A stretch of DNA of 64,000 bases from Paramecium tetraurelia (GCA_000165425.1 CT868096.1:248001-312000), one strand, 5' to 3'; positions 1,998 through 51,240 are shown, counted from the first letter of the stretch. Numbers and translations: made by a program. Notes: generated by a model not told the origin, from the letters alone.

Positions 1998-2653
1998 TCA
2001 TTCAATTTATTTGCTATTCTCTATCTATTGAATAATCTTTTGATTCTTCTCTGTTACTTCCTAAACTTATAGAATTTACATATCATACTCTAATTTAGGA
2101 CCTAAGAGACTTGAGTCGTTTGTCAAACTCAAATTATTCGTCTTCCAAGTCTGCTCTTTCTTACATGTATTAGAACAACTCTTAATTTAGATTCTCTAAC
2201 ATATTTTTGTAAGAAATTTGTAAATGACTTGAAATCTCAGTTTATGTAAAGAATAATTTTATTTAATTCTTAGCCTATTGTAATTATCTCAACTATTCAA
2301 TTTTGCCTTGCTTCTCCCCCTTTAATTCCTGTCTCTAAGACTCCAAATCGAATAATTGTTATTCGCCCAATTCCTACAGGTACTCCCTCAGATAAGGATC
2401 AACCATTGGACTTTCCTCCTGGTATTCTATTTATCAATCACTCTCTAATACACTTTAATTAGATTTGCTATATTTTGCTCTTGATATCTCCTAATTCCTG
2501 TCGTAATTCCTTATGTTCGCCCTCCTTCTACTTTAGCACTTGCAGCAATTCCTGTTGATATTGCTTTTCCTTGTTCACAATGACTTCCACATCCTCCAGC
2601 CCATCATCTGAAGGTGTCTATTCAACATAGTCTCCGTCAGCTTCCTCATACAT
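1998..2653 (-). CDS. Hypothetical acidic coiled-coil protein
   Basis: MYEEADGDYVEQTPSDDGLEDVEVIVNKEKQYQQELLQVLKQK...KIIQQIENSKQIE*; two short GT-AG introns inferred. Confidence 0.7.
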
Positions 2654-2677
2654 TAATTCTTAATTATTATTTTTTTA

Positions 2678-3608
2678 ATGTCTTGGATTAACTAAAACCA
2701 AGTTACCTTCAACAAACCCAACAACTTGCTTAGTTTGTTTAGTGCATCACAAGATTAGCTGCATCACGAGCCCATCGAATAATTTACCAAACTTCCCCCT
2801 CACCTTTACACTAAATATAAAGGAAAGAAGCCTTCCCAAATTCTCTATGAAGAGGTTGTTCATTTAAATAACCCAATAGATCTACAAGGAAATTATTGAA
2901 ACTCCCAATATCAACAGATTTCTATAGCCTCCTCCACAATAAGAATTGAAAGATCAGAATTTTAAATGTTGGTAATGTTAAAAAGAGATATCAAATGGCT
3001 TCCTTACAATAGGTGCTAATTGCGATTAGTGCTTCTTTCATGGCCGCTACTTTTGTAACGACTGCATGTCTGTAGTTCGAATGCCTATTCCCTGGAAGGC
3101 CTTGGATAATTTTGATCTAAGACACTATAAGGTTTCTAAACTTGCTTAATCCGAAATAGATAAATTATATGCCTTGCCAATTTTAGAAATTACTACAGAT
3201 TCTAAATTATTGCAGGCTAACAAAACTCTATTTGAATTTCTCGTGCTCAAAAGATAAATTCATTTGTTGTATGACATGATCTGCGATCCTAAATTAGTAC
3301 AAACCTTATTAGATTAAAGAATGAACCTTTGCTTAAAAAGAAATTGCTTCAGTTTAAAGGACCTATATGAGATATACAATGGAAGTCTGACTAAGGTCAT
3401 TTAAGGATATTATATTATACTGTTTAAACATATTGATGTTTGTAAGAGTTGCCAAAAAAGGGGACACATTTGCATTATTTGTAAGCATATGGTGCCAATT
3501 CATGCATTTGATATCAAGAATGTCACTTATTGTGACACTTGTTTAAAAGTATATCATAGAGAATGTGTTGAATCAAAATCATGTCCGAATTGTTTACAAT
3601 AGAGATGA
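2678..3608 (+). CDS. Rubicon-homology (RH, zf-RING_9) domain protein, DEF8/PLEKHM1/Rubicon-like
   Basis: After a 25-nt intron (2855-2879): LKDQNFKCWQCQKEI...CFFHGRYFCNDC...IPWKALDNFDLRHYKVSK...HIDVCKSCQKRGHICIIC...CDTCLKVYHREC...CPNC, the Cys/His pattern of the RH domain. Confidence 0.85.
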
Positions 3609-12227: not shown

Positions 12228-14183
12228 ATGCTGAATGGAAAATAAATTGGAGATTACGTGCTTATGGAAGAATTAGGCAGGGGCTCCTTTGGCTGTGTAA
12301 CTATCTCTCTATATCATTCTTTCGATAGGTTTACAAATGCTAGAACATTATCGATTAATCATTTCATGCAATAAAGATTATCCAATTTCAATCTTTGAGC
12401 AATTGCGAAGGAGTTGTTGGTGAATTATTAAAGGACGAGATAAGTGTACTGACTAAAATAGATTCGCCTAATGTTTTGAAATTGGAACACTACTTTTAAT
12501 CAAAAAGTAATTGCTATATTGTAATGGAATATTGTAATGGTAAATATACATATTTTTAATAGCAAACAGGAGGGGATTTAGAAAGGTACTGGACCAGGGA
12601 AGGTAAAAGAATAAAGGAACAGAAAGCACTAGAAATCGTTATCCAGATTCTGAATGGATTGAGTGAATTACATAAATAGAATGTGATACATAGAGACATA
12701 AAATTGGCCAATATTTTGATGCATAATGATCAAATTAAAATTGCCGATCTTGGATTCTGTAAGCAATTGCAAAACTAGGTTTGATTTATTTTTATACTAC
12801 TTTAGGAAATGGAGGTTAGCTTATGTTTGGGTACACCAGGCACGATGGCACCGGAAGTAGCCTCATTCGAGAGTTATGGCTTACAATCAGACATCTTTTC
12901 GATAGGGTGCATCTTCTATCAACTTTTATATGGTGAATTGCCCTTTGAGTGTCTAAATATCAATTCCTATATAAAAGCTATTCGATATTGTAATATCATA
13001 ACCATTCTATGTTAGAGTAAATCGACTTCAATAAGAATAACGTCGTGATCCAGGATGAATTAAAGGAGATTATTAGCAAGATGTTGAAAGATGAACCCAA
13101 AAAGAGATTAACCTTCCCCCAATTATATCAATATCCTCTTTTCAGGAACACACAAAAAATGTCTTAAGTAAGTAAAATTGCAATTCAAAATATGACGAAT
13201 CCAGAAACTACTAACTACTATGAAGAAATTTATAAAAATCAACAGGATATTCAGATAGGATAGTAAGGCATGACCGCCTTGAAATAGAATGGAGACATCT
13301 TTAAAACTTAAACTGAGAAGCAAAACTAGTAATCTCAGTTTATGAGTAATCTATAGAATGCGAATAATAGCAATCGCAATCTTTTTGTATAGGATCAAGT
13401 ATCAAAGCTGACATATGAAATTATGGCAGCCCAATAATTGCGTCCAAATCAATAATAAATTAATAATGCTTTATAGGAACTCTAAGATAATGAGTAGATA
13501 TTCAAAACTGACAGATTCAAGCATAATTATAGCATGACTGCTAATAGTTAATAGAATCAGAAGTTATGTCAGCAATTTCGTTTCCTTTTGGATGCCTTAT
13601 AATATTGCGATAGAACATACATTGAAATCGATCAAATCTAATTCTTAGATGAAAGCTAGGTAAGCTTTTTCATTTGATATCAAAGACTTTGATAGGCAAA
13701 TTCATGATCCAAAAGAGAATAAGATCTGAAAGCAAGAAGTTTTTCTAGGTTTAACAAGAGAACCCATTCTATGATGAATTGAATTAAATGGGAGAAGCCT
13801 TCAAACCTTATGTCTAAAATCAACTGTTTGAAAAATTGCATCAGCAGATGTACTATTTTGATTTAGTGGTTAATAGCATAAGTTCTTCTTCCCTTCTTAG
13901 TAGATTAACACAGCCCTTCATAAATGAGTTGAAGGATGAAGAAACAGGAATATTCCACTTGCACTATTGGGAAGCATTAAATGAATTGCATCAATTAATC
14001 AAAAAAGAAATCAATAGGGAAGCGGACAACAAAAGAAAGAAGATTTTAGTGATCGCGTTGCTTCATTTATAAGGATGCATGCATTTCCAAGATCTGTGTA
14101 CTTTGAAAATAGATTTTGAGGAAGAGTTTTTACACATAAAAAAGAAAAATTTGATTGAGTTGATCAAGAAAGTTTAATATTGA
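12228..14183 (+). CDS. Ser/Thr protein kinase, ciliate ULK/ATG1-like type
   Basis: [48 protein letters not shown]; several short introns; Q-rich linker and helical C-terminus. Confidence 0.92.
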
Positions 14184-14222
14184 TATTTATATTCAAATTT
14201 TACATTTATTATATAATATAAT

Positions 14223-17200
14223 ATGCTTCCAATAATACTATTATTACTTTATCAAGTGTCCTGTGGTAGAGTTAGACCATATGGACCAAGATCACTTACA
14301 ATGTCTAATGTCAATCCCAATGGGTATCTTAATTTGATCTATTAGAATTTAGTTGGTCTGAATACAATTTTACAATGATATTTGATACAACCTTACCATC
14401 ATCAGGAATTTTAGTGATTGAGTTCCCAAACGCAAATTATCCTGACAGATTGGGATTACGTCCAGATGCTGTTTTGTATGCGCCTTACCCTAAAACGAGA
14501 ACTTTTGTTTAGAATGACAGATCACTGGAAATTCAATTAGGAGAGTGGCCGATTGAAACTCCTTTGACTGTAACAATCTCAGGAATTATTAATTCACAAA
14601 AATAAGGAGGTACTGGAAATTTCAAAGTCTATACAAAACTCAATTCTCATATTGTTGACATTAATAGGAACTTTGCTGTCATTGGATTGGCAGGAGAAAC
14701 TATACAACTGTTATCAGCCTAAATGTCTATTAATAACAATTATGCTGGAGAAGTGACAGACTATTTAGCCTCTCTCCAACCTAGTTAGGATTTGAATAGC
14801 AGAATCGACTTCATTATCACATTCCCAGATTTGTATGATCTTTCCCAATTGAAAAAGTGCTCTTGCAATGTCTTTACTCCTTCTTGCACTGTTCATAAGA
14901 ATTTTAAGAATCAAATACTTGTAGGAGGCAATCAAAATTCTATTCCAAAAGGTACCAGTGTTTAAATAACATTTAATGACATTGTGAATCCATCGAGGAA
15001 GATGAAAACACCCCTCTTTAATTTCAGAGTAATTGAAAGAAACACCAATAACACATTATAGGAATCATCGGCTGTTAATGGGTTGGAAATCTTAGCAGGA
15101 TAAATGAAATTAGTCATGTTAGAAATTCTTTACTATCAACCTTATATCTATTACATCAGAGACTTCAGACTATAATTCAGACCTAAAAATGGGTTTTAAT
15201 ATGCCAAAATATCAACCGATTTCTATTAGGTAATGAGTTGCCAAATCACGAGAGGATTGTTAGACCCAAGTAAATTTTAAGATAGTATATGCAGTCCCTT
15301 GGGAAGAGATATGTTTTTATCTAATATTTAATCATACGTAGAATCTGATTATAGTTATGAATTCGTTGAGGTGCGTTTCAGAGCAAGAATCGGAGATAGA
15401 GTCATACTTACAAACCCAGTCGAAATATACACATACAAGGATTCAGATTATCTCTATCTGGCAGATTAGGATAGTCTCTCTGTTAACAGTCAATTGCAAA
15501 TAGTATTATGGCCAATAGTGACACCAACCATGGTCTTTGCTATCACATTTGATGACCCTTTGGTCTAAACCAATGTATATCCATAAACCAATGCTTAAAT
15601 CACTATAGTCTATACTGCCAAGGTCGGTATCAGTTTAACAACCAAAACTGTCTTCGGGTTGGAAATCCCATAAGATTTCTAGGGAGTCCCAGAATGCACA
15701 TTCAAAGATCCAAATGATGTTATGGTAGATGTAACATGTGAATTCGGACTTGGATTTCTGAACATCACAAATGTCTTTGATTATTACGATTCTACAATTA
15801 AGGGAGCAGTTATAACAATAAAAGGGCTTTTAACACCAGAAACAGCTGGCAATTTTCCAATCGGAACGTTTGTTTAAGATCAAAATAATGTTTATTACAA
15901 TAATGACACTTTCGTAATATCACCACCAACATTTAAGAAAACTACTGGATAACCTGAATTAACAACAGCAGTCAGTTAATTATCAATTCATTAGAATCAA
16001 TAAACAGCTATATAGATTTAACTTCAATTGGATTGTGATATTTCAGCAGGAGTTAAAAATATGAATGATCCCTATGTTCCATTTACAACTATAGAAGTCT
16101 ATTTTTATTAGTATTATATTACAAATAATGTGTTTGATTATGATTTAGGATCAGGATTGCCAGATCTATCATAATATGGTTGTTAGTTTTAAGATGGAAT
16201 GGTGGCTAGTTCTGGGAATAAGTTGTCATGTGTACTATTCCATGGTATTAACACTGCAACTCCGACATTTGCCAATTATGCCATGGTCAAGATTTAAGGT
16301 TATGCAGCCATTACAGCAACAAATACATCTCCAGTTACTATCTCATTTAAGATACCAGTGAAATACCCTTCCACTATTGGAGCTATCCCTCGTATTAGAG
16401 TTGATCTTGTTAAATATAATCAGAAGGTCAAATCGACATTGAGGTCTCAATCATTCAATATTGGAGCTGTTAAAAATGCAGTAGGAAACAGTTTAGTCGT
16501 TTTCAGTGGGCCAGTGTTAGAGAATCCCAAATTATAGGTAGAAACTACTTTAACTTACAAATTCAAAACAGTTATAAGTTTGGCCAAATCTAAATTGAAT
16601 GGAATATATTTTGAAATACCAAGTGGATTTACTTTCAATTCAGATAAGTTGTTGGTAAGTATTGATGGTGTCTATTAAGACCCAGAGGTAATCTAATATT
16701 TTCCCACTTTTATTTTCATCATGACCAAATTTTCCCAATTATCAAATGGTATTACTCACAACTTGATTTTTGAAAGAGTAGATCTCCCAGTGAGTCTCCC
16801 ATCCTCCAGTGTTACTCATAACATTAAGACTGCATCAGGTGGACAATTCGCAGATACAGCCACATTCACAATACCTACCTTAACTAAAGGATCTCTTCTA
16901 GATATTAGTTTAACTCTATCATCGGATTCTCAAATGCATCCATATGCTAATTATTCAATTTCATTTACAACTTCCATGAAATCATACGATGGATCCATGA
17001 TAATAGTGGATTTCCCATTAGGATATGATATTTAAGCATCGAATGCTTACTTAGATAATATTCCATATACAAATTTAAAAAACACCACTACCAATACCAT
17101 TTCATATGATTTACCAACCATTAGAAAATTCAGAGTTCTTAATTTTGCTCCTTTGATTAAAGGTCAAAGAGTTTCAATTGGTATTTTCAGTGTAAAAAAC

Positions 17201-20200
17201 CCTATGAGTGGCACATTTACAATTGGAATTTCTACAGTGGACAAGAATGGAAATATAATAGAAGATGGATCGAAATCAGTGACAATTGGTTCAACTATTT
17301 TTTCAACACAAATTTTAACAGTAACTTCAGTAGAGTCTACTCCAAATAATAAAAAAGCTTTGGCATTATACACTTGGTATGTGAATGTAGATTTTACAAT
17401 TCCTAAGTTAAGTTAAATTTAGTTATTCCTTCCCGGAATGCTCTCCATTTATTCAATATCTGCTGCTATTGTATCTTGTCGGATAGTCTAAGATTCAGTT
17501 ATTCCACTAAAGGATTGTTTGGCTAATGAATTAGGTTCTCCTTCTTATGTCTAAATGATTACTGATTACCCAATTAAGGGAAAGGCTTTTAAGATTGAAT
17601 ACTATGGATATTTATAACTAGAAAATGCGCTAAGTGGACTCACTATTTCAATCACATATAATTCTTAGGTGATTGCAACTGGATTATGTCCAACAGTTGC
17701 AGTGACTGATTAATTAACACCATCTTAAGTGACATTGGATTTCTACCCAAAAAATGAAGGAGAAATTGCATACTACAATTTTTATTTAGAAATTGGCAGT
17801 GCTTTTACAATAACATCTAATCATTATATTCTAATAAGATTTCCTTTTGACTATGATTATATAATTGGAATTGAAAAGATGTAAGTCAAAAGTAACACTC
17901 TCTAAGGAGCTTTGAAGATGGCCATAATACCATATCATATAAAAATAAGTGGATTCTATGAATTGAGTAATTTCAAAGGCACATTAGATATTAGTCTATT
18001 AGGAGTGATCAATCCAAATAGACAGAATAACAAGGTCACTGGAACATTTTTATTTGGAATAATGGATGGAAATAAGATGGTCCTAGGTAATACTGCAATA
18101 AGTGGTGTAATTCCTCAATTGGCTCCACTATTGATCCAATTAAATAAAATCACCAGCAGTGTTTCTTTGAGTAGATATGCAAGTACATTCACTTTTGAAA
18201 TCTACCCTCTTTAAAAAGTGTTGTCAACAGTTTATGGAGGGTAATTGTATGCAGACTTTCCTAATAACTTCATAATTGATTCTTTCAATGGAGGTTGTGA
18301 AACCACATCACAATTTTCATTTTTTGCTTCTTGCAAATGGGATTATTTTAGATTCCTGTTCTAAACAAATAATTAGGATTGGTATGCAGATCGATCAGGA
18401 TAATTGGATTTGACAATTACAAATGTGTTGACTCCAGATGATGATGGAGAAACAAACAATTTCATAATCTATAATTATGATTCAATAAATAAAATAGTGT
18501 TGGGAAGAACATACGCAAATCTCCATTCTGCATCATTGATATATAATTATGATGGATTACAGATTGATGTTAATCTTAAATAGCCATTCACTTTGGAAGT
18601 GGGATCTTATTCAGATGAAATCATAATGAATATCACTGATACAGCAGACTTCACTCTTACTCTATCCCCTAACGTTTTGGACTCCTAAATTATCATTACT
18701 CCTAATCCAGTCTAAATTGTTGCAGGAAGCAAATAAGCCAAATTTAGAGTGGCTGCTCCCAGAACCATTTTGTTGTAGACTTACTACATTTAATGGAGTA
18801 AGACTGGAGACACCTTACCTGTTACTTATGCTCCTCTGAGATTGACACCCTTGCAGATGGTTAAAGGCACATTAAAGAGGAAATTGACGATCGAAAAGAT
18901 GGAATATATGCCAAGAAATGGAACATCATACCCACTCTACATCACAACCAACAATCCTCCATATTAGTAGTTGTTAATAAGAATAGGCTTCAAAATGAAT
19001 GTTACTGCAGACGTACCTCTCAGATAGAAATGGTTCATTACAGACAAGAGATTAGAATAACTTAAACTCACTTATGCTGAATTGGTCGATAGTGGAGTTG
19101 ATATTACAGAACATTCTATTGCCAACCTATCCAGTACTCAATTGGAAATGGCTAAATTGCAGTATTCAGTTAATTATGATCTAAATATTTCAATCAATTA
19201 TCCCAGTAAGGAAGACACTCTTACACTCTATTACAGATTGAGAGGATATGACGCAGATTCATTCGAACTCGATGTTCAAGAAATGATCATCCCCATAAGA
19301 GATCAAGAATTCAGAAAACCTAAAATCCTTGAAACCAAAGTTCTAGAAGTAACCAGATCTACTGCTACTTTCTAAGTTACTACTGATATCAAAGGATTCA
19401 TATTTTATGTGTATGCTGATCAACATATGCCGAATCCAATCTTCGAAGAGACCAAAGAACCCAACCTTGACAATGTCACACTCTCTCATTCAAATCCTCT
19501 ATATGGTGTTGATTATGTTAGAACTACGACCTTAGATGTCAATTTCACTATTTCTAAACTCTCACCTAATCACAATTATGAGATCTTTATATTCGTTATG
19601 AACTTAAATAAAGTCGACAATCCCACCTTTATGAAGGTCTTCTTTTAAACCCTTAAGTCTCAAAGGATTGCTCTTCTAACCCTTAAAATTAATTAAGCTA
19701 CTATTGACAATGAAGTCAAAATGGATTACATTCAAAAAGTGGCTGAAATGATCGGAATCACCAAGGCCAGATTATTAGAAAGGACGACAGAATGCAAATA
19801 GACCACTCTAGATGTTTCTACCTCCAATTCTTATCTGTTCTGGAATTTGATTATCTTACCTGATCCTTCAAATATGAATGAATATACTAAACCACTCATT
19901 CTAGCCTAAACCTTAAACTCTAGGAGAGCTGAAATATAGAAGTTTATCACCAGACTTGATGACGAACCCTTCTTTACTTTGGAAGAAATCTCTGACAACA
20001 TTCCTAGTTTTGTTATCAACCCTGAAATGATTGATAGAACTACTTCATCAATATCTGTCAGATTTAAGGTCTCTTACTGTGGTAAAGCCTACCTCACTGT
20101 CAGGAAGAGAGAAAACTCTTAAAGTCTGTCCATTGTTAATGAAACCATCTTTGCTTAAGAACTTCAGAGTGTTCAATTTCCATCAGCCTATCAAATTAAA

Positions 20201-20542
20201 AATGCTCTCAATGAGTCTAATCAAGTAATCAATCAAACAAAAATCACTATTCAAGACACTGATGCCTTCTATCAATACAACTACACAGATCTAGATGTAT
20301 CTATATGATTTTTTCATTTAAGTAAAAAACCGTCTATGACATTTACATTTCCCTTGAAAATGATTTCATTGCCAATCCTGAATTGTTTAGCAATGATTCC
20401 GTTGCCAGATTTACTGCAAAAACACAAAAGATTATTAGTAAACATATCCTTATGTATTTTAGTTCCCCTAAATATTTACAGTATCAATTATTAAGGTTTG
20501 CTTCCATTTTTAATGATTATCAATTTATTATTAATGATATGA
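14223..20542 (+). CDS. Very large (~2000 aa) surface protein of tandem beta-sandwich repeats, probable GPI anchor
   Basis: Signal peptide MLPIILLLLYQVSC; ~6 kb code-6 ORF; recurring Y..F...I.I.FP..Y and I.NP....F.I motifs; FN3-like NFTISKLSPNHNYEIFIFV; hydrophobic C-terminus GLLPFLMIINLLLMI*. Confidence 0.85.
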
Positions 20543-20667
20543 TTACATATTTAACAAATATTACTATCATTAGGTTTCTCTACATTACAATAAATATGTG
20601 ATTTTCTAAAATTGCATTAGAGAATATTTAATCGAACTCTTTAGAATACCTCTCATTAATAAAATTA

Positions 20668-22419
20668 ATGAATAATTATTTTCAACCTTTCTCTGAAATC
20701 AAAGGGTATTAAATACAAGCTTTAATAGGAATAGGAGGATTTGGATAGGTAATTATGAATATTATTTAGGTTTATAAAGCCATTTAGAAAGATTTAAAAA
20801 AAGAAGTAGCCATAAAAGTGATAGAAAAAGAGAGATATTAGGAAAATGATGGACTTTTCGGGAAGCTAGTGGAGTCAGAAATTAAGGCCTTGTAATTAGT
20901 AAAGAGTGACCATATTATTGAATTCTATGAAGCATTTGAAGATGCTAAATATCGTTTCATAGTATTAGAATATTGCGATTGTAAACTCGATTAAAATATT
21001 TTTATGTTAGCCGGAGACTTAGATAATCAATTGAAGAATCCTAAGTTTAAAATAACTGAATAAGATGCAATAGGAATTTTTAAGCAAATTTTGAAAGGTC
21101 TCAGAGATTTACATGCAAAACATATCATACATAGGGATTTGAAAACATAAAACATAATGGTTCATAATAATTCTATTTATAAAATAGGCGATTTAGGGTT
21201 TTCAAAGATCTTAGATGCTGCAGTATTCTATTAATATTATAAAAGGATCAAAAATCCAATTTACAATTAGGTAGCTTATATACAATGGCTCCTGAAATAT
21301 TCAATTAGAAACCTTATGGATTAGCTTCAGACATGTTTTCCTTGGGAGTTATCTTCTATTTCATTCTATACAATAGACTTCCATTCAAATAGAAGGATTA
21401 CTTACAAGATGATCAACGTAATCTTAATTATATTTTAGCAAACTTTAATTTTGAGAAAAACTAAATTGAAGTGTCAAATTCGACTTAAGATCTCTTGATC
21501 TAGATGCTGTAATTTGATCCTTAAAAGAGAATTACGTTTTAGAATGTAATAAATCATCCAGCTTTTGAAAAGCAAAAATTTAGTATTCATCTCATTCATT
21601 CTCTTAGGTATGATGAGCAGGATACAATTGCAAGCCAATAGAATTCCCTTTGAAGACTATTAAGAGTTCTACGTTGAAAAAACAGCCGAAATAGAACAAC
21701 ACTTCTTAATTGATTTTGGTTATCAACAAAATATTCCCTAAGTAGATAAAGCTAAGCAATAACCCTAAAGATATATCAAGATTTCTGAAGTAGTGGACAT
21801 TTAAGAATACAAAGCTAATAAATTAGGGGTAGAAGTAGACAAAATCACCCAAAAGATTAATCAGATGTACTACTTTTCAAACACTATCCAGGAAATGGTA
21901 TAAATTTTTCATTCACCCAATTTAATTGCTTTGTTGTGTTTAAAATTATCATAATTGTGTGAAGAAATACTCAAAATGATTTTTGAAAATAAAGATGAAT
22001 ATCAAAATCAGTAGCAATATAAGGATGAATTTGTAAATCTTGAATTATAGGAGCGTGAAATGTTAATTTTAGATGATGGAATAAAATTTTAATTGAGAGA
22101 TCTCAGAGAGTAACTAATTAATTTCGATGATGCAAAATTTGCTCAATCTTTATCAGATAATTTACCCAAATAGTAATTTAATGCTATGTTCTTTCAAATA
22201 TTGTAAAAGTTTCTTGAATCTGAAAATTATTAAATTACTATTGCATCATCCCATTTAGTTAACTGCTATTTATTTTGCATCACTGAGAATTCATAATTTT
22301 TAGACTTCAATGAAATGACCTTTAACCTCAACAAATCTAACGAAATACATAAAGATTCAGAAAATCTTTTAAACAAAATTTAATTATTTTCCGAAAAAAT
22401 TAATAGTTAAGAATATTGA
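20668..22419 (+). CDS. Ser/Thr protein kinase, ciliate ULK/ATG1-like type
   Basis: IGIGGFGQVYK, VAIK, IIHRDLKTQNIM, YKIGDLGF, GSLYTMAPE, DMFSLG; several short introns. Confidence 0.92.
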
Positions 22420-22528: not shown

Positions 22529-23031
22529 TCAAACAATAAAAATCTATAAATCATTCAATTCTTTAATAGATGATATATATGAAGTCCCTCTTTCCAGAGT
22601 GCAAAATTTAGATCTCTTTTTTTCTTTAGAATCAGAAATCTGCTCCTATTTCTATTTTTTCAGAGCCTTAAGTCTATCTGATTGCAATGAGCTAAGAGCA
22701 AATTGCATTTACGTGACTACTTATTCTAACTTTTGGAGATCTTAACAAGTTTAATATTTAGCATCTGATCTATTATTAAAAGGGTTTTATGAAGAGCATA
22801 ATCAACAAGGGATCTCTTAGGGGTTAGTAAATGGATGAGAACGAGTGATCGTTAAAATTAAATTGATATTTTGGAAAAAGGATGGAGATTATGTTGAATT
22901 GAATATTTGTGCTTCTTATATTTGGATTGGCGAGTCTAGCTATTTGTCTGAGGTATGAGAGTGGTATAAATCTTATTTAATGATAAATTTATGTGAGTTT
23001 TTATTTGATAATGCCTATTCTAATCATTCAT
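22529..23031 (-). CDS. Possible small hypothetical gene (structure unresolved)
   Basis: Coding-like frame QDLQKLEQVVTQMQFALSSLQSDRLKALKKQKQEQ...FIV*; I could not join it unambiguously to an upstream ATG. Confidence 0.35.
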
Positions 23032-23054
23032 AAAAATATAGAAATAAAGTGATA

Positions 23055-26000
23055 ATGAGTTTCATGGATGATGCTATGGAAGTCGAATAGAATGATGGTA
23101 AGGTTCAAGAGATTCATCAACAGAATAGATTCCTGCATTCTAAGAGAATGATTATAGTGGATGAGAAATGCTAAGCAATCGTTCCTGATAAACCTGAGAA
23201 GACTTTGGAAAAATTCATTAAGCATGTAAATTTGAATTATTATGTTAAGAGATAAAGTTTGATATTTCAGACAGAAAAAATTGAGAAGCTTTAGAACATT
23301 GATGATTATCTACTATTTGCATAATCTTTAATTTTGAGCTAAGTTGATGAATAAACGGCGGAGGATCCGAAAAAGAAAAGCAAAGGATTTAGTGGTGATG
23401 GATTGATTTTAAGTGGTTTGTCGATCACTTAAGAATAAGTTAATGAAAGAGCTTTAATGTTTTTAAAGTCGATGGACTATAATATAATAAAAGCAAAGTT
23501 TTATTTGTTATTCCCAAGTTTATTGGTTTATAATCAATTTAAACACAGACATGCATTGTAATTCACCAATGAATACATGAATGAAAAAATTGAATTGTAC
23601 ATTAGCAAATTGAATGAAGATAAAATGATGCAACAAAACAAGTGGAAATAGGATCTTATGGATATGATAAATAGCAAATAAAAGGTGCATTTGGCTCAAC
23701 TCTAAACATTGCTAGAACAAGGATAGTAATTAAAATATGAAGTTCCTGAATCAATAAAATAAATTCATTCAACATCAATACAAATATAAAAATAAATAAA
23801 TAAATTATTAAAGGAAAAATAAACTTTGGAAAAATTGCGTCAACATTTAGAAAAATTTGAGGAATAAATACCAATTATCACTCCTGAAATATAATAGTTA
23901 AGAGAACAAGTGTAGAAATCTGAAACTTTTTATTAGAAACTTTTGAAGCTTCCTATACCTGTTGAAGATAGTGATAATTTTGATGAGATATTCGAAAATC
24001 TCATCTCCAATTCTCAGTCTCAAAAGGTTCAATTGAAAATCCTTGCAAATTATAATCAAGAATACAAGCTACTTCCTATTGAAATAAAGGCATTCGAATC
24101 ATTACACAAACGATTATATGAATTCGTATTGGATCTAGTTGAAAAGATTAGTAAATTTACTAAGATTTAATAAACTAAAACTAGATTAGGATAATATATA
24201 TCCAATCAAGGAGAAAAAACTGAAAAAATGACATTATCCCAAGCAGGAATATTTAATCATTAGATATTAAAATTAATAGTGACTTGTGATGATTTTGATT
24301 ATTTTAATGAATTATATTAATAAGCCTTGGAATTGAATGAAAAAGTTAAATAATAAATAGATGATCCTGAAATGTAATAAAAATTACTAGGTGAAGTGTT
24401 AGATTGTCCATTCTATTTAGATGTTCAAGAAAGATTATAAAGTATGATAGACTATACATAAATATTGGATTCAATTAAATTAAAAATGTCGGAGAGGTAA
24501 CATTAAGTTGCAAATCAATAAATTTAAATGTTATTAAGTAGAGGAATAATAAATGATGAATTGAAACTCCTTTAAACTCAAACATTAAGAGTCTTAGAGT
24601 GGAACCAATTAGCAGATGAAATTATATCTTATCATTAAAACATATCACTTATTGATGTATATGATGAAAATTTTGAATTGTAATAATATCCTAGTACTCT
24701 TCTTAATCCAACATCAGATATTATAAATTAATTAGACCCAGAAAAGGTTTAGGAAATCGAATCTATATCTGAAAGAATTTAAATGTGGAAAGAGTAATTA
24801 ATTTCATTAATTGATTGTAAGCAAGTCCAATAGACCAGAAAAAACAATTAAAATAAAACATTTTATAAGTTGTGGGAACTCTTTAAGGAAGGATTAAGAT
24901 ACAGATAGGAATTAACATTGATGACCAAAGTTAGAGACATCATTATATAGATTTTAGATTGGCATGCCTAAGTCTATATGATTAAATAAACTTTAAGAGT
25001 TAACGATGATTCAAGTTAATAAATCGATGGAATAGATACTATATGTAGAGTATATATTTAAAGGAATGGCAATTAACATACTTAAGACCAAATCGACAAA
25101 TTACAAAAATTTCAATCACCTTTTCTAAGTGGATCGAAAGATCTTTAGATTATTTAAGCTTTAATATAACATACTGAAAAATGGAAAAAAGATGCAAAAG
25201 ATGCTATTCAAACCTAAAACTAAGAATAAATCAAGTCTTTATTAGATGAATCTTTGAAGTTGCCAGTGGATGAATTATTGGTCAAAGAACTATAGAGTAT
25301 ACATGCATCTCATTAAAAAGTGAATTGGATTTTATCAACTATTGCTACATCTGATCCATTATTTGATTCAATTTTATCAGCTTTAAAGAATGATGAGTCA
25401 GTTAAATAATTGAAAGATGAAATGTTGACAATTTATGCCGATAATCCATAAAATAAAAAAAAGAAAGAAGGCATGAAATTGTCAAAAATGGCTTAAAATT
25501 TCTTTTTGAATTTTCAAAATACAATTAATAGCTATTTAGCATTTTTGACTCAATTAGATGAAAATAAATTAAAGAAATTATAGCCTATACGAATTTAAAG
25601 ATTGAAAGAATACTAAAGAGAAGTTTAAAATGATGACTTTAATAAATAGATAGAAGATTGGATTTAATAGTATCAATAATGGTAGATGCAGATAACCAAT
25701 TTAAATGATTAGCAATAATAAAAGAAAAAGAAAAAGGGAAAAGATTCAGAATCCCAACCTGAAACTTATTCCTTAACTGGCGATTTACTCTATTATTTCA
25801 AAGTTCCTGAATTGCTTTGTCTTGTTATTTAAGGAATAGAGAAAAACTATATCAGTCAGGAATTAATAAGTTCGATTGAGAAATTGGTTATCATAAATAG
25901 ATAAGCTTAGATAGCTCTATCTGTATCGAGTGTCAAAGAAGTATCATATTATTCTGAAGTATTTATGCCATAATTTTACGTAATGGCCAAAAAATTCAGA

Positions 26001-28083
26001 GTAATTAATAATTGGATGCAGATGGCCTCAGATATGATAAACGATATCCCAAGATTAAAGAATATCATTATGATATAAAAACTAAAGCCTTTTCTTGAAT
26101 ATCTAGAATAGTTACAACCTTAAGAATTTAAGATGTCCAAATCTGCCTAATAACAATAATAATAACAATAACAACAATAATTACAATAATAATAAACTAA
26201 CCAGCTCTTTAATTAGTAGTAAAACTAAATCTTATAAACCTAATCTAACATTAAAAAGAAAGCACAAAAGTCTATAAATAAATTAAAAAATAAATCTTAA
26301 GAAGAATCATAACCTACTTATGATCAAGAAAGTCAATCATTAAAACATTCTAAACGAGTAAAGTAAGTCTCCAAGTTAATGAGAGATGATAATATTGCAT
26401 TTTATGATGCCAATGTTCCATTAGGAAAAGCCTTTAGATCTTCACCCAATGAATGCATCAATTCCGATCCTGTTATGCAAGCATTAAAAAAGCCAATCAT
26501 ATAAAAAAGAGGCTATAAAAAAGGGTTCAATAGAAAGGCATCTCCTAATTTGGAAGTGGAATGCAATAGTTCTAATTTTTTAGATTAAGTAAAAAACTCA
26601 TCTTAGGAACTATTGAATCTTTACAGTTAGGATGAGATCTACTGCACATGTAGATAAGGAGGGGAATCAGCCATAACAGAATTCTAAATCTTAAAAAGTC
26701 TACATGAAAAAAATGTTGAGCAATTCTTCAATTATCATACAAAATTACAATAGCAAGTTAAATTTATGATATTTTGTGACAACTGTGAAGAGTGGTATCA
26801 TTATGAATGTATGGGCATTAAGAAATAGAGAGAATAGAATTAGGATAAATACAATTGCAGAAGTAATTTTAATATATCATATTAGTTTGCCTTAAGAAAA
26901 ACAACATCCCATTTTTAATCCTAAATGAGAATCTGTGGGAATAATACATTGATTTAGGAAGTGATCTATATGAAGATTATTAAAAACATAAATTACAATT
27001 TGAAAAAAATATACTTCCTAATTCAGGAGAATACATTTATGGTCAATTTTTATTGCCAACGACTGAAGAGTTCAAGGAGTTTGTTAGAATTGGCTAAAAA
27101 TTACCTGCATAATTGGTTGAACTAGAATTGCTTGAATTATTGGAATAGAGAGTTGATGAATGGACAATAAGATATGAAGACCATAAAAATCTTGATCTTC
27201 CCCAATTGATTGCTCTCTATTCTGAAAGTGAATGGTTACCAATTCAATTACCATAATCCAAAAATTTATTATCTCTTATAAGTCAAAGAGAATTTTTGAA
27301 TACTGCAAATGAATTGCTACAAAGCAAAGCTACATTCAAGACCAAACAATTAAAAAAATAACAATAAGAGAAAACAGAATAATTATATTTATATATCAAA
27401 GATAAATATCCAGAATAACTCTCTGAAATTGATCATTAGATTGTAAACACAATTCAAATGTTAAGAGTTTAAGCTGAACTTAATAACTAACTATAGCAAC
27501 AATTAAAATAGTAATTAACCTTTGAATAGTATGAACAATTGGCAAACCAATTTGAAAAAGAAGTTAAACATCATATACTACAAACGGATATCAAGTTTTC
27601 ACTTCCAAAATTAAATGAACTGAGATAACAAATTACTAAACTTCAATAATGGAATGCTGAAATTTTGGCTATTTTCAAAGATATTGACGATATTTATACA
27701 TCAAATGTATATTTTTTTCTTTATTTTTAAGTTAAATTCTTAGTATCAGGATACTAAACCTAATTTATCAGAGATACAAGTAAAACTAAAGGAGTACGAA
27801 ATGATTTCAATTAAAGTTCCCAACTAATGTCATGAGTTTGTAAAAGCACTTTAAGCTAAAGCAGAAGAGTTAATATATAATATTGAATAAAACTTATCAT
27901 AATTATCTTAAGACGAATAGTTTGAATTAGTTAAAACTGTGTATTTATTAAAGTGCAGAATACCTCAATTTAAGGAATTGCTATTAAACAAGTACTACTT
28001 TTCTAAATTTTTATAGGATTCATAAAGATGTGCAAATGAGAGTTGTTTAATGGTTGCCTCCACAAAAACCTGGACTTTATTGA
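23055..28083 (+). CDS. Chromatin protein: ELM2-like domain, PLU-1-like helical repeats and PHD finger (KDM5-related scaffold lacking JmjC)
   Basis: ELM2-like IIVDEKCQAIVPD...IDDYLLFA...NERALMFLKSMDYNIIKAK; PLU-1-like KVQLKILANYNQEYKLLPIEI...MTLSQA...VTCDDFDYFNEL; PHD IYCTCR...MIFCDNCEEWYHYEC...YNCR; post-PHD LPTTEEF...QKLPAQLVELELL...RVDEW. Confidence 0.82.
26148..26195 (+). repeat. (TAA/CAA)n poly-glutamine tract (Q11-L-Q4) inside the PHD-protein gene
   Basis: taa taa caa taa taa taa caa taa caa caa taa tta caa taa taa taa, in frame with the CDS. Confidence 0.85.
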
Positions 28084-39600: not shown

Positions 39601-40107
39601 CTAAATATTACAAATTTTTTATTCAAGTAATCAATGATTGACGTTTTCCTTTTAAAGCTTAATGGAAATGTTCTAATAATTTGGATATATATGAAAATTA
39701 TCTTTAAATATATAAGCAAATTAATTTTATTGATTATTATTCTCAGTTACAATCACAATTATTATCTTTCTGACCTTTTCATAATAATTTCCATGAAATA
39801 TAATGTATTTATATTGTTATAAACGAGCAACCTGCTTATCATGTTTGTTTTTTCGTCAAGTTTTAGCTCTAATATAAATGAGTTCAAGAAAACAATTGAA
39901 TAGGAGAAATCTTAATAACAAATAAAAACCAACCAAGTACTTATCTCAAATCCGTTTCATCTTTTAATAAATACTATTATATAATTTATTAACATAATAG
40001 CTTTTAAATGAACCATTATGTACAAATTAAGTTGATGTTTTAAAAACTATAAATTTAGAATTAAGCTATAAATTGATAAAGATAATAAATGAGAAAATTT
40101 AATGTAA

Positions 40108-42495
40108 TCAAACATTGTTTCTAAACATATTAGTTACGAATCTCTTAAATCTTTCAGCATATTGATGAGGAGGTATCGCTGATATGTCAGGGCCTTAAAA
40201 GCATCTTTTACAACAGTACTCAATTTTCTTTTTAGTGCTAGGATATAAATATATGATTTATACTTAAAATTTGTCAATATATCAATAATTCCAAAGAAAT
40301 AAATTTTATCACCAGTTTTCGATTGAATTATAGAAATATCTTCTGATTCTAGTTCTTGGGAGATCTCTGTTCTTGCAGTAGTTTGAAGAAAATTAATTTC
40401 ATGAATACCCAAGAGTAAACTATAATCAATAATATTATTTTAGGCAAAAAAGTCTGCATCCTTGCATAGTTATTTGAGTAATTCACTTTGCTTATCAATT
40501 TTAATATTAATTTTCTCATGAGATTCTAAGAAATTTAGATCCTTTCTAGCAACAGTATAATCTGCATTATTAGGAGTTTTTCTTTAATGAAGACTCCCTT
40601 TAATATCATACCTTACATTGATTTCATGAGATGTTTTGAACACATTACTCATAATGACAAAATGTATTTTTTTATCATCCAATATGATTTTGTGCATTCC
40701 AAACAATTTTATTATTAAGGATTATCTGTGATCTTTTAGATGTTTGTAATAATTATATAAGATATGTCTCATAAATGTGAATTCTGTTTTTGAAATAGTT
40801 TTCAATGTATAAATGCCATCCTAAGAATAATAGAAAAAGCTTCCACTTTTCCCAGTAGACGTTAATTCTGATAGTGTACTTAGATCTCCTTTTAAGATGC
40901 TTGATAATAATGTTTCAGGTCCAATGCTACTCAAATAATTATCATTATCAATAAAAAACATTTTCCTAATGTGATTAAATACTTAAGGAGCATAATCAAA
41001 GAACTTACAAACTTTAAAAGTGGTTTTTTCATTACCTGTTCTTTTTGGCATGAGTTCAAAATAGTACTTTAATTTAAAGTCCTTTAATGCAACTTCATAA
41101 TCACTTAAGGCATTGACTGATTTCACAGCCATTTATATTCCAATCATCATATTTAATACAAGATTCCAATTCTGATGACCAAATTAAACAGACAGAGCTG
41201 TTTTTCTCTTTTTATTTATATTTGCTATTGTGGCTCTTCTTTTTTCAGCAATTTCTTGATCTCTCTTCTTATTGATACTGAATTCTTCTAATTTCTTCTA
41301 ATACATTTTTTCTAATCTATCCAAAGATTGTTAAGTTTGCTATTTTAATTCATGAATCTTAATTAAAGCTTCTTTATAATTATCTCTTATTTAATCTTCT
41401 GCCATGTAATTAATCTTTTCTAATCCATCAGTCAATTCTGGATCCAAGGTTTCCTCGCTCTCTTTTGATTTTATAATGTAATCTATTTTTATGGGTATCT
41501 CTTAATCTCCCCTATGAATATAAGGGCCAAGTTGACTATTGCCTTGAATAATTTCACTAGTTTGAACTCCTTATTGGCGACCCTTATTCGCATTCATAGT
41601 ACTCGACATCCTCAAGGATAGAGCATCAACTTCATCCCCCATCAAATATTGAATTCCGAACTGACTATTTATATTTGTTTTCCTTTATTATAAATAAATT
41701 GAGTATACATTTTCTTCTAGCACAATATTAAACTCTAAATCAAATTTGGTTTGGGTTACAAAGTTACAGAACATCGTTTTTGCCTCAACCCTATCATTGT
41801 TTCAAACAAGCTTACTGCTTAATCCTTGATTAAGTAAAACTCACTCAGAACTATCTAATCTTATTTTAAGGTTGCTTCTTTAATAGAGATAGTTATCCCT
41901 TTCCTCAAGAATTCGAATATATCGAGCAAGGTTGGATCACTGGTTAAAATTCCTTTGTATTCAGTAAATGAGACTTTCTCATCATTATTCTTGTCCATTT
42001 ATGTGAATATGTATGCAACTCTTTTTTCTAAGTGATCTCTTATCTCATTTGTTATCGCAGTTCCTGTCATAACAACCCAAGAATCAATCAAAGCCTACAT
42101 CGTCAATTAGAAATCTCTTAATGTGAAATAACCTTTTCTATTTTAATCAATTAATTTGTATGATATCTCAGCCTTTTCATCTTAAGAACCATAAGTGATT
42201 TTATCGAAATAAGCAAGAAATTCATTAAACTATATTTTACCATCCTGATCTTCATCAATTATTTGAAATAAACAATCACTCAATACTTAAACTGTTTCAA
42301 GTCCAAGTAATCCCATGTTTTCTCTAAATTGATTTTTTGTTAAATAATTAGATCCATTAGCCATTCTCTAAAATCTTTATTTAAGCACGCATCTTACCTT
42401 CTTTGTAATTCTTAAACCTCTTCTGCTGAAAAACGGAATCTTGTCATCCTATTCCTCTAATTCTACTAATTCCCATTCCTACCACAGCAAAACAT
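40108..42495 (-). CDS. Phosphatidylinositol-4-phosphate 5-kinase with N-terminal NCS/calcineurin-B-like EF-hand domain
   Basis: EF-hand loops DEDQDGKIQFNE, DQNRKGYFTLRD, DKNNDEKVSFTE; kinase motifs STGKSGSFFYYS, YDIKGS, KDLNF, IIDYSLLLG, GIIDIL, ISAIPP. Confidence 0.93.
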
Positions 42496-42788: not shown

Positions 42789-45700
42789 TCACCAATAACC
42801 GCCATGATATTTGGATAAATGATCATAACATTCTGAAGCTGTCTTAAACACCTGCATGCAAGGGACTCCTTTTTTGTTGTCTTTCCAACAAATGCTCTTA
42901 TTACAGACAGAACAAGTCACTCTATAGCATCCATCAATTCTCTAAATTAAGGCTTAACAACTTGGGCATTTTCTAATATCTTATTCCTTCATCAATTTTA
43001 ATAGCAACCCTTGATCACCAAGTTTATTTTCCTCACACGTTAATCCAGGGTGTCTTAAAGCCTATCTTTTAATTCAATAATTACTTTGCATAAAAAACAA
43101 TATTATTTTAAACACATTGAACAATATATTGCCTTATCTTCTATTTAAATTTATTCAAAATTATTACAACCAGGAGTGTAACAGAAGGTTAAACTTTGGT
43201 TATTCTCCTAAACAAATTTATTAAGAGCCAAATTTATCAAAGTTTCTTTGTTTTCTTTCCCAATTATTTACAATATATCATTTAGAATCATTTTTTCATT
43301 GCATATAGGACATCTTACAGGAAATAGTTTAACATCCTGTAAAACACTATTACAATGAAGGGAAATGCATTCTAAACAACATTTATGGCCACAACCTTAT
43401 AGTAAATAACTGTGTATTATTTTATCAAAGCAGATAGGGCAGTCTTCTTATTTTGCATCACTTATTATAGTTTCTTCATCAAAGTTTACTTAAGATACTG
43501 CTGATTCAATGCAAGAAACAGCATCTTAAATATTTAAACCTGATCCCTCTAAAAACAATTCTTTACTCTACTGTTTATATTTTATCTAAGTCAAATTAAA
43601 TTGCTTTTTTAGGCTATCAAGACCCTATCCTTTTAAGCCAACTAATTACTTAATTGCTCCAGGTGGTATTATTAATTTATGAGAAACAATTATTTAAGCA
43701 ATTTAATTAACATAATTAGTAATCTCATCTAATTTTTCCTTTTAACAACAAACTCGTATCACTTTTTTATATTGATCAATCATGAAGTGTATGCTTCCAT
43801 CTGCTTTTTCAAAGTCTTTTAATTTATTCTATCCAAAAGGTGTAAAAAGAAAATCGCTAGTATTTTTCAATTCAATTTTATAACCTTAGAGGAAGTTAGT
43901 AATGACTTGATCTAATTGTTAATTTACTAAGATATTGTATGTACAAATGATAACTTCTAGTTCCCTATTTTTTTAATGATTTCCTTATTCGAAAGTAACC
44001 TTGAAATTAAACTTTTCATATTCCTTTAATAGACTTAAAATATGGGGTTTGAGTTGAATAGGGATTTTATGATATTGATAATATTAACCTTTACTGTGGA
44101 TTTTAACTAAATTAGCTCCAAATTATATCTTTTATCCGTTTAAAATTTCTAATAATTTTTACATAGTATGAATGCTGGTAATATAAATTTTAGCTTTTCT
44201 TTTGCCTCTTGTCTTTCTAATCAAGTGAGTATGATGGAAATCAACATCCTTTTTCTCATTTCTTTCAATATTTCTATTGATTAAATGTATTATAATTTGG
44301 GAATAATCTTCCTTGCTTTCAGATAGAGTTTTTGATTATAAATCAATGTATTTGACATGCTACTTCCCACCACACAACATAAGAATATCAATTTCAGTTG
44401 TAAACGGACTTAAATTCTAGAATTTTAAAGTAAACTCATCTATTTATGTAATTTTAATTTATTTTCCTTCCAATAGCTGATTATTAAATTAATCTAAGCA
44501 TCCCTTAGCCTAGGCCGTTTCATTAAATACCACAGTGCAGACTCCTGAACATAATTTGGTGTACCAGATAAGACTCAATATGTATTTTTATTAATTAATC
44601 TTATTTAATTATATTTGAGTCTATTCTGTAACAACACTAATGATTCTATCTTAATACTCTGATTAATCATAGCCTTAAATAATGTAAGGCATATCATCTT
44701 TGTCTTCAATTACAATTTATGCTTAGGTCTCATTTTCCAAATAATTTAATTTAAGGTGTGTGATCACAGTAAAGTCTTCAAATAATTCTTTGATATCACC
44801 TTCTGTTACTTTGGGAGGTAGTCCTACTAGTTTAAACTCTTTAGATTCATGCTACTTTATCCATTCGCTAATAACGGCTCCACTCTAAAATATTAATTTC
44901 TTTCCACTTATGTGCTTGATCTCTAATATTTAGGTTTTTAGATTTTCTTTAATTTGATCAATTCTTGCATATAGTTCACCCATATCAACCTTGTCATCTG
45001 AATAAATAGATATTAAATTCAAGTTCAAATTGGGTTCTATAGAGCAATTATATTTATTTTCTAATTCAGTAATTTCAATGCCTTAATTTTTCCATAGTTC
45101 TTCCAAAATTACATTACCGACATTAGTAAGTATTATTTCTTTTTGAGTCAAAGATTACTTTCTATTTTTATTATGGAGATATAAAATAGAATTTTCTTTA
45201 AGAGCTAAAATATAAATATATTGTTAAAGTCTTCCTTTCTATTTTTAGATGCAACCCTAATTTAATTTATAGCTTTGTTCTTGAATATGATATAGTCTAT
45301 CTTCTCTTAATTCGGCTACTGGGAAATTTAACTTTAATTATTCTTCAACTTATGGTTTGTCTTCTTAAACTACCTACATACTGGATGATCTTCTAATTGG
45401 AGCCATTGACAACCCCCCAATATTAAGAATATTAAATTAAGGACAATTCTATAATATTTTTATTATTTTACATATTCTTAAGTGTATTACTAGACATATA
45501 ACAGAATTAGTATTCCTTTATAAAGATTGATCTAATTCTCATCACACCACTTTTCTAATTGAGTAAATTCAAAGATGCTTTAATTTTTATCAAATTCGAC
45601 ATTAAGAAGGATAGAGTTGATAAATGTTCCAAGCTAATCGATTATTTCAATCCATGAATAAGCATCCCCCTTATTCGACCAAAGCAGACTCGTCCTAATT

Positions 45701-49239: not shown

Positions 49240-51230
49240 ATATGAAAATAAATATAATTATTCTTCTCTAAAGCAACTAGCTTAAATAAGGTCGATTACA
49301 TTGTGATAAATAGACTTTAGACATCATAAGTAGAGTTGATAAATAAAAAATAAGGAAAAGTCTATGATTAAATAAATAATACTAAAAACTCTCATATTTT
49401 TGATATAGGTTTAATAATTACAGATTATTTAATTTTTAACTTTGGATGATGAAGAAATGGAATCATCATTTCCTTATTTAATTCTTTAACCAAATTATAG
49501 ATAATATATATTAAGAAAACAAATTATTTAAGAAAAACTAGGTATCTCCTCCTGATCAAGATTTTGAAGGCTAAACATTTGATATAGATTTATTTAGAAA
49601 CTTTAAGAACGGGTGTAGACTAAAAGAAAAATAAATTTATATAATTACCTTAAAATTAATGGAAATTAAAAATGGTTTAAATTGAATTTAAAGAAAGAAG
49701 GCAGATATTCAAATTAAGATGAAGAAATATGAAATAATAGAGGATTTAATAATTATTAGTATCTTGCCTTTTGATGATAAGATTAATATTCAAAAAATAC
49801 ATGCTCAAATAATTAGATTAGATTTGGGCTAATATATTGATACTTAGACTTACGACATTAATTTTCTAAGACTTAAACGATCATAATCAACTGAATGCTG
49901 TATTAACGCATTTTATCTGTTCGTATTTAAGGCAGCTAGCTTTTAAAATTTTTCAGTATTTTTGTACAAAAATTTTGATAAAAAGTTATTTTTCCTATAT
50001 AGAGAATAAATAATCATCAGATCAATATTTAAACTGCTTATTTGGTATAATCACAAAAATTGGATTTTAAAATGTTTGTTGCGCATTTTAAAACATTATG
50101 ATTTCTTAAGTGTGCTTAATTAAATGCTGGCCAGGCATTTCACCTATTTTTTGGTTAAATTTCTTAGGAAAATTCATCCATAGCACTTATTTAATTTAAA
50201 TGATACGTTTGATTATTGATAAAGGAATTGAGGTATTTCATATTATATGAGATTATTTTGAATTAATCTGATTAGCTTAACTTAAATAAATTAATAAAAA
50301 TAGATGAGATTCCTCTCAATAATGATTAAAGCTTAATATAATATTTATAAACTATGTTTATTATTCTTTAAATATAATTATAAATATAAATAAATTTTTC
50401 TTTAGTCAAGATTTATTATATATATAATTTTTCCAATAATCAAGTGTGTCGAAATTAATTCTTTTAATCCCATTTTGAATTTATTCTAATACCTAAAATA
50501 TTATGGATATGTTCATCCTTAATATTAAATTGAATTTAGTTTATGAAATTCTGCATAAATGAAATTTAAATTAAGTTTTTGTTTTTTTAATGAGATGAGA
50601 AATTTAGAATTGTTGGATCATAAGAATTTATCTATCAGAAATAAGAATAAATAAAGGGATACGTTTAGCTTTTGAGTATACTAATATAATAATGAAAAAA
50701 CCAATTATATAAATTAATTTTAAAATATTACTTAATGTTTTAGAAGAATTAATTAATATAAAAGTTTGAAACACAACATTATTTATAATTTAATTCCAAT
50801 TAATTTAAAAATATTTAAAGATTTATGTATGTGTAATTCCTAGTTAAGTAACAAGTTTACATTTTTTGATCACATAAATGCAACTAAAGTTTTGGGGAAA
50901 GGATGGAATAGATGAAAGCCACATCCTTTTTAATTATGTAATGATAATTGATATTAGTCTGTTTATGATATAATATAGATGAATTTCTTTAAAGAAGACA
51001 AGAAGCATTGTCAGAGTCTAAACATAAAAAATGTTATTGTAGATTTCCTGAAATTTCAGCATTGAACCTCAATTGATCACTCTTTAGGAATTATTCTAAC
51101 TGAACAAGCATTTTAAAGAAGAACTTAAACTTCTCAAAATCCAATTTACCCAATGTCTTTAATCACAATAAAAGGAATCTTAAGGAATAATTTTCTCAAA
51201 ATAAAGCAAATTAACTATAATTTTTCATTT
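49240..51230 (+). pseudogene. Decayed coding remnants (one piece weakly kinase-like)
   Basis: Fragments such as LDDEEMESSFPYLIL and NEMRNLELLDHKNL...LAFEY, interrupted by frameshifts and TGA. Confidence 0.3.
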
Positions 51231-51240
51231 CATTTATTTC

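Follow-up and report, generated by a model that had tools for sequence, protein, structure and literature searches.

Analysis of a 64,000-nucleotide (nt) window of the Paramecium tetraurelia genome (GCA_000165425.1, CT868096.1:248001-312000), within which all positions below are counted, revealed a five-exon gene on the + strand at 23055..28083. The gene is real, expressed and spliced as modelled. Its 1643-residue product contains one PHD finger and two regions resembling the helical PLU-1 region of the KDM5/JARID1 histone demethylases, shows no match to the domains of the demethylase half of those proteins, and begins with a domain that may be of the ELM2 type known from histone deacetylase (HDAC) co-repressors. 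The features of the gene, and the next gene upstream on its strand, are as follows.

23055..28083, + strand: whole gene, ATG to TGA; five exons, 4932 nt, translated with genetic code 6 into 1643 amino acids (aa)
23145..23522, + strand: ELM2-like domain; extended motif RMIIVDEKCQAIVPD (23145-23189), then helices to NERALMFLKSMDYNIIKAKFYLLFP (23442-23516)
23226..23249, + strand: intron 1; 24 nt, in frame, GTA...AAG; omitted in X3 and X6 transcript contigs
23592..23948, + strand: first PLU-1-like helical region (Pfam PLU-1), extending by eye from fragment matches to about 24275
23949..26147, + strand: central region; no Pfam family, helix-rich by eye only
26148..26636, + strand: polyglutamine run (26148-26195), then a K/S/Q-rich low-complexity linker, read from the translation
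26637..26893, + strand: PHD finger (C4HC3), Pfam PF00628, with a 29-aa insertion between the first and second Cys pairs
26670-26756, + strand: insertion in the PHD finger; 29 aa, retained in transcript contigs, equal in length in three of three orthologues
26863..26885, + strand: intron 2; 23 nt, cutting the last PHD Cys pair (between NCR and ICL); omitted in X3 and X6 contigs
27059..27682, + strand: second PLU-1-like helical region (Pfam PLU-1), after the PHD finger
27707..27731, + strand: intron 3; 25 nt, omitted in X3 and X6 contigs
27992..28016, + strand: intron 4; 25 nt, omitted in X3 and X6 contigs
20602-22419, + strand: protein kinase gene, the next + strand gene upstream

The transcript data comprised contigs from public runs X3 and X6 and raw oligo-dT RNA reads from about one third of each of runs X20 and X21. 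The X3 and X6 contigs lack exactly 24, 23, 25 and 25 nt at 23226, 26863, 27707 and 27992, that is, exactly the four introns, and therefore derive from spliced RNA. Sequence comparison showed that intron 1 is also removed in the annotated orthologues P0004 and P0005, and three raw X21 reads spliced at intron 2 cross from 26862 into exon 3. Introns 2 to 4 are frame-shifting, and the frame opened by the ATG at 23055 runs on through them to the TGA at 28083. The gene collected 159 raw reads in X20 and 94 in X21, covering most bins at low depth; the first mate lay on the - strand in all of them, a single orientation that in most stranded libraries corresponds to + strand RNA. The contigs start at 23050 and 23053, 2-5 nt 5' of the ATG, and end at 28124 and 28073, with no joint from the gene to upstream sequence in X3 or X6, so that in these data no JmjC exon is spliced on upstream. 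An earlier note on this DNA, made from the sequence alone, had proposed a KDM5-like scaffold with an ELM2 domain in place of the demethylase module and had named such an upstream exon in cDNA beforehand as evidence against that proposal; neither set of contigs contained one. In one X6 contig, 27366 is followed by 29 unrelated AT-rich letters and then by a return to 24512, probably an assembly chimera, and the X6 loose ends at 23385, 24529, 27343 and 27364 are likewise probably chimeras at low-complexity sequence.

The predicted protein is identical at 1619 of its 1643 residues to the Paramecium octaurelia protein P0004 and carries the database name 'PHD-type domain-containing protein'. Word-based protein searches with exon 2, with the post-PHD region and with the N-terminal alignment plus longer candidates returned 3, 3 and 2 proteins, respectively; full-length relatives came only from Paramecium, three orthologues in all (P0004, P0005 and P0006), and none from outside the genus. 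Identity to the P. primaurelia protein was 94% over the N-terminal domain compared with 87% over exon 2. When aa 1-1182 were compared by phmmer with 1.84 billion representatives, 33 matches resulted. Each is a fragment, 53-333 aa in length, that looks like part of an orthologue from another ciliate; 24 of the 33 overlap aa 109-292, and P0009, P0015, P0017, P0019, P0022, P0028, P0031 and P0032 match inside the central region. The P. tetraurelia model P0006, 1339 aa long, starts about 300 residues downstream of the other orthologues, and the 109-aa fragment P0012, 72% identical over aa 1-93, holds the N-terminus missing from it, with a change of frame after a DIDD motif, which suggests a split or frame-shifted gene model in P. 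tetraurelia.

The PHD finger, which the earlier note had placed at about 26635-26895, was confirmed at 26637-26893 by a Pfam score of 33.3 bits for the window exon (34.1 for P0004 and 31.6-34.1 across the orthologues; cut-off 24) and by the presence of all eight C4HC3 ligands, in the order C-x-C...C-x2-C...H-x2-C...C-x2-C. A search of PDB sequences identified the PHD fingers of CFP1 (E 4e-5), DIDO1, PHF2, PHF8, BPTF and TAF3 as the nearest solved relatives, which are readers of histone H3 trimethylated at lysine 4 (H3K4me3); KDM5A PHD3 was a far weaker relative (E 0.27). The Trp of the EEWYH motif aligned with the corresponding Trp of CFP1 and DIDO1, and the other cage positions coincide with the 29-aa insertion. 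Because those positions fall in the inserted stretch, we describe the finger only as a putative reader of H3K4me3. An unannotated intron at the insertion was considered and rejected, as the stretch has no in-frame GT...AG borders of normal Paramecium length; its retention in mRNA and its identical length in the three orthologues indicate that it is coding.

Similarity to the Pfam PLU-1 family was found on both sides of the PHD finger. In the first match (23.0 bits, E 5e-5), residues 180-298 of P0002, translated from exons 1-2 without splicing, aligned with profile positions 203-325, and in the second (25.9 bits, E 7e-6) aa 58-265 of exon 3 aligned with positions 84-277. Full-length P0004, P0005 and P0006 scored 29.5, 31.0 and 24.7 bits, respectively (Pfam cut-off 28.5), with the match in P0005 spanning residues 1311-1558, and PLU-1 also matched five of the 18 sequences in the N-terminal alignment. 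The highest scores came from two divergent fragments, P0010 (37.7 bits) and P0013 (38.3 bits), each covering about 200 profile positions. As a control for composition, 31 other long open reading frames (ORFs) of the window were scanned, a set that includes several judged by eye to be helical and rich in Q, K and E; none matched PLU-1 at E<=0.01, nor did any match an HDAC family. Because of this control and the two fragment scores, we regard the PLU-1 similarity as modest but specific, and homology to PLU-1 as probable on sequence grounds. The earlier note had recognized a PLU-1 pattern at about 23880-24500; the similarity held, but its position had to be revised to the two regions found here, of which only the first overlaps that interval, and then partially. 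Mapped by eye from the longer matches of the fragments, this first region would span about 23565-24275. The peptide it had quoted (LPTTEEF...RVDEW) is present at 27053-27163, within the second region. An impression by eye of a repeated helix-LP-helix-W module was not sustained, in that hhalign, applied to six segments of the orthologue alignment, detected no repetition, the comparison of the two PLU-1-like regions included (probability <1%), high scores arising only from the 21-residue overlaps between adjacent segments.

In KDM5 proteins the catalytic half lies before PLU-1, and PLU-1 precedes PHD2. The earlier note had likened the quoted peptide to the segment that follows PHD2 in KDM5/Lid proteins; here the region holding it matched the PLU-1 profile. 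Pfam searches for the four families of that half, JmjN, ARID, JmjC and zf-C5HC2, gave no match in P0004, P0005 or P0006 at E<=10 and none in the exon translations of the window at E<=1, in agreement with the absence of these motifs recorded by the earlier note. The description of the protein as a KDM5-like scaffold without the demethylase module was thus borne out by the PHD and PLU-1 matches, by the four absent families and by the contig starts at 23050 and 23053.

Directly before the first PLU-1-like region, at 23145-23522, lies the stretch in which the earlier note had seen an ELM2 pattern (about 23150-23520). By eye, the ELM2 consensus is matched in order and spacing by three elements, the motif IIVDEKCQAIVPD, a LIF...DDYLLFAQS stretch and the NERALMFLKSMDYNIIKAKFYLLF helices. 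Within the first 1182 residues, conservation is highest in the last helices of the domain and the stretch after them. Two AlphaFold models were compared with 48,161 chains using VIA-align. The first, of the 310-aa homologue P0007 built with an 18-row alignment, had a mean predicted local distance difference test score (pLDDT) of 77, with residues 140-310 above 90, and has a single long helix (188-222) after the ELM2-like domain; the second was of the window's own domain alone (23112-23579; mean pLDDT 61.3). Most rows for P0007 fell on its C-terminal helical hairpins, but two of the four rows over residues 70-173 were MTA1 ELM2-SANT structures: 4bkx_A (Z 4.9, root-mean-square deviation (rmsd) 2.3 A over 54 residues, 17% identity, model 99-172 on MTA1 206-277) and 7ao8_D (Z 4.9, rmsd 1.8 A over 52 residues). 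With the domain-only model the same two chains ranked third and fourth: 4bkx_A (Z 4.8 over 64 residues, 19% identity, model 55-137 on MTA1 202-277) and 7ao8_D (Z 4.8, rmsd 2.5 A over 56 residues, 21% identity). The MiDAC chain 9r4i_E, probably MIDEAS, followed at rank 40 (Z 3.9, 23% identity). The prospect that the N-terminal domain is a true ELM2-type domain appears evenly balanced.

We propose, with a probability of roughly 40%, that the protein is related to the C-terminal half of KDM5/JARID1, is not catalytic and has an ELM2-like head in place of the catalytic half. The following results weigh against this proposal at the N-terminus. No ELM2 (PF01448) profile match was found in the 21 distinct sequences scanned, counted across three window exon translations (E<=1), the three orthologues (E<=10) and the 18 members of the N-terminal alignment (E<=1), although HMMER filters may hide very weak matches; PDB sequence searches with the N-terminal alignment profile and with the domain alone yielded no ELM2 protein at E<=10; and Foldseek with both models gave no ELM2 row and nothing at E<0.7. 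The domain-only model is poor by its mean pLDDT, and Z values of 4.8-4.9, matching those of unrelated helical rows, fall in a range that VIA-align regards as usual with helical models, the top Z being only 5.0-6.6; because the top Z in the domain-only list is only 5.0, the ELM2 rows do not stand above noise by score. The three orthologues contain no Myb/SANT family at E<=10, and known ELM2-SANT co-repressors need both ELM2 and SANT to hold HDAC1. Look-alikes of aa 1-175 in the protein Atlas carry PLU-1, not ELM2 (score 0.77), which is a lead only. What the ELM2 claim of the earlier note retains is therefore the stretch itself, with low-Z structural likeness and by-eye motif likeness and with no profile match. 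The missing profile, PDB, Foldseek and SANT matches, the unexceptional Z values and the Atlas look-alikes speak for an explanation in which the scaffold is the same non-catalytic PHD/PLU-1 protein and the N-terminal domain is a lineage-specific helical interaction or dimerisation module with no kinship to ELM2 and no link to HDACs. We consider this explanation a serious one that falls somewhat short of an even chance, since two independent models reach the same MTA1 ELM2 helices and a MiDAC chain, so that co-repressors of two different HDAC complexes recur in the lists; the sequence identities of the ELM2 rows are among the highest in their lists; the MTA1 alignments stop at residue 276-277, the ELM2/SANT border; and the order and spacing of the motifs fit ELM2 by eye.

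Other evidence against the proposal concerns the KDM5-like body and the PHD finger. The PLU-1 scores are barely over the cut-off in P0004 and P0005 and under it in P0006 and in the single window exons; the post-PHD region (exon 3) matches no KDM5 chain among PDB sequences; and none of the 33 phmmer matches is a KDM5. At the PHD finger, the insertion takes the place of the stretch that bears cage residues in its relatives, and the histone-mark preference suggested for the finger is drawn from those relatives only. If the PLU-1 likeness were a by-product of long Q/K/E/L-rich helical sequence, the protein would carry a PHD finger on a helical body specific to ciliates and would be unrelated to KDM5 by descent, an explanation in keeping with the scores near the cut-off, the missing KDM5 matches, the failure of hhalign to find a repeat between the two regions and the biased composition of the protein (Q 13%, L 12%, K 10%). 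It is nevertheless improbable in view of the composition control, the scores of the two divergent fragments over 200 profile residues and the whole-protein Atlas neighbours, which are PLU-1/PHD clusters and a cluster named KDM5A. The possibility that the gene is a truncated model of an ordinary KDM5, with catalytic exons upstream or elsewhere joined in the mRNA, draws on P0006, whose shorter N-terminus shows that this gene can be modelled incompletely, but it is scarcely credible given that the contigs begin 2-5 nt 5' of the ATG with no upstream joint, that the sole upstream transcript (22574-22963) is of the opposite strand in X20, and that the next + strand gene is the kinase ending at 22419, identified by a Pfam scan of window ORFs.

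The short separate transcript at 22574-22963, in the 'intergenic' gap upstream, is covered by both X3 and X6 contigs. Raw X20 reads there show a mate orientation opposite to that of the gene's reads, suggesting - strand RNA, and two - strand stop-to-stop ORFs of 131 and 133 aa (22632-23027 and 22660-23061) overlap it.

Comparison of the proposed non-catalytic KDM5 relative with known systems identified both shared and distinguishing properties. With KDM5/JARID1 proteins (KDM5A-D and Drosophila Lid) it has in common the PHD finger and PLU-1-type helical regions; it differs in lacking JmjN, ARID, JmjC and C5HC2, in having one PHD finger instead of three, in carrying PLU-1-like regions on both sides of that finger, and in giving no KDM5 match with phmmer. 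PLU-1 of KDM5A and KDM5B is reported to be an uncharacterised helical region, and that of KDM5A (residues 741-1072) is described as a curved, helical rigid linker (PMC10578193). The same source describes an association of KDM5A with Sin3B-HDAC and NuRD in animals (PMC10578193). An N-terminally truncated human isoform, KDM5B-NTT, likewise presents a KDM5 body without a working demethylase: it reportedly lacks JmjN and part of ARID, is catalytically inactive, still binds chromatin and promoters, alters H3K4me3 and has an effect independent of catalysis (PMC13664838). In contrast, KDM5B-NTT is an isoform of a catalytic gene, whereas the Paramecium protein has a gene of its own, lacks JmjC altogether and carries another kind of N-terminal domain.

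The fungal Snt2-Ecm5-Rpd3 and KERS (KdmB-EcoA-RpdA-SntB) complexes each bring together a deacetylase of the Rpd3 type, a KDM5-type protein and a reader with a SANT domain (PMC9508808). If the ELM2 reading is right, the Paramecium chain would unite the KDM5-like body and the HDAC dock of these complexes, whose parts are separate polypeptides and in which KdmB is an active demethylase. With ELM2-SANT co-repressors such as MTA1 of NuRD and MIDEAS of MiDAC, the protein may share a helical sub-domain: about 55-64 residues superpose at Z 4.8-4.9 on MTA1 202/206-277 and at Z 3.9 on a MiDAC chain, preceded by an extended motif that is similar by eye; unlike them, it has no Pfam ELM2 match, no SANT domain and no Foldseek match. 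The only paper found to contain both ELM2 and PLU-1 was a survey of domain co-occurrence, which is reported to list PLU-1 with JmjC, JmjN and PHD, and ELM2 with BAH and Myb/SANT, not with PLU-1 (PMC2993927). Among the proteins of Paramecium with a PHD finger, DevPF1 and DevPF2 are described as developmental proteins involved in genome reorganisation that carry PF13831 and PF13832 (PMC11385659); as the present protein carries PF00628 and PLU-1 instead, it belongs to a different family.

The Atlas, in which likeness is a lead and not a test, suggested a wider distribution. The nearest cluster to the whole protein (score 0.90, 193 shared features) is 1689 aa long, contains PHD (98%) and PLU-1 (77%) and is commonest in Chlorophyta; two haptophyte PLU-1/PHD clusters followed at 0.89, and a cluster named KDM5A at 0.83. 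JmjC was not among the common families of the three nearest clusters. JmjC-less PHD and PLU-1 proteins may thus occur in green algae and haptophytes, perhaps catalogued there as unnamed proteins. The statement of the earlier note that no description of this architecture was known holds for the pairing of ELM2 with PLU-1, which literature searches did not find, and has to be qualified for PHD with PLU-1 in the absence of JmjC, which by this lead may be catalogued elsewhere. Literature searches found no paper pairing ELM2 with 'ciliate', and the top-ranked literature on PLU-1 in ciliates yielded no PLU-1. We describe the product as a scaffold of the KDM5 type that lacks JmjC and whose ELM2-like head, though of interest, is unproven.

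How such a protein might act can be outlined under the proposed KDM5 relationship. The 1643-aa product would be a nuclear scaffold in which a single PHD finger of the H3-tail-reading type is combined with two PLU-1-like helical regions, and in which an N-terminal domain of about 130 aa, folded like the helical part of ELM2, would occupy the position of the KDM5 catalytic half. The PHD finger would tether the protein to H3K4-marked chromatin, the helical body would provide a rigid platform or spacer, and docking of a partner would fall to the ELM2-like domain. The likeliest partner would be a deacetylase of class I (Rpd3/HDAC1-type). That the putative partner is an HDAC is doubtful at present. 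Less likely still, if all of its parts are taken together, is a single-chain reader-eraser adaptor representing an unnamed family of ciliates, and possibly of green algae and haptophytes, in which the demethylase half of a KDM5 ancestor would have been swapped for a SANT-free ELM2-type HDAC dock; such an adaptor would couple the reading of H3K4 methylation directly to deacetylation, as a one-polypeptide counterpart of the fungal Snt2-Ecm5-Rpd3/KERS complexes, possibly with a role in the chromatin states by which ciliate nuclei differ.

The catalysis-independent functions of KDM5 proteins are hard to separate from demethylation (PMC10578193), and their scaffold function would be isolated in a naturally occurring, expressed protein in which the PHD/PLU-1 body is all that is kept. 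Docking of an HDAC without SANT, if true, would add to the ways in which class I HDAC complexes are known to be assembled, and the protein would then be the first candidate ELM2-type co-repressor of ciliates, as no literature pairing the two was found.

Finally, the window contains several further genes and sequence features. An ORF at 14159-20308 on the + strand, just upstream of the kinase gene, runs uninterrupted for 2049 aa and matches no Pfam family at E<=0.01, and about 50 X in the translation of an ORF within 51052-52338 mark a stretch of N in the window. Neighbouring genes encode a Rubicon-homology-domain protein (2559-3605, + strand; 148 bits), a PIP5K (39960-41801, - strand; 204 bits) and an RRM/KH/RING-IBR protein (42995-45538, - strand).

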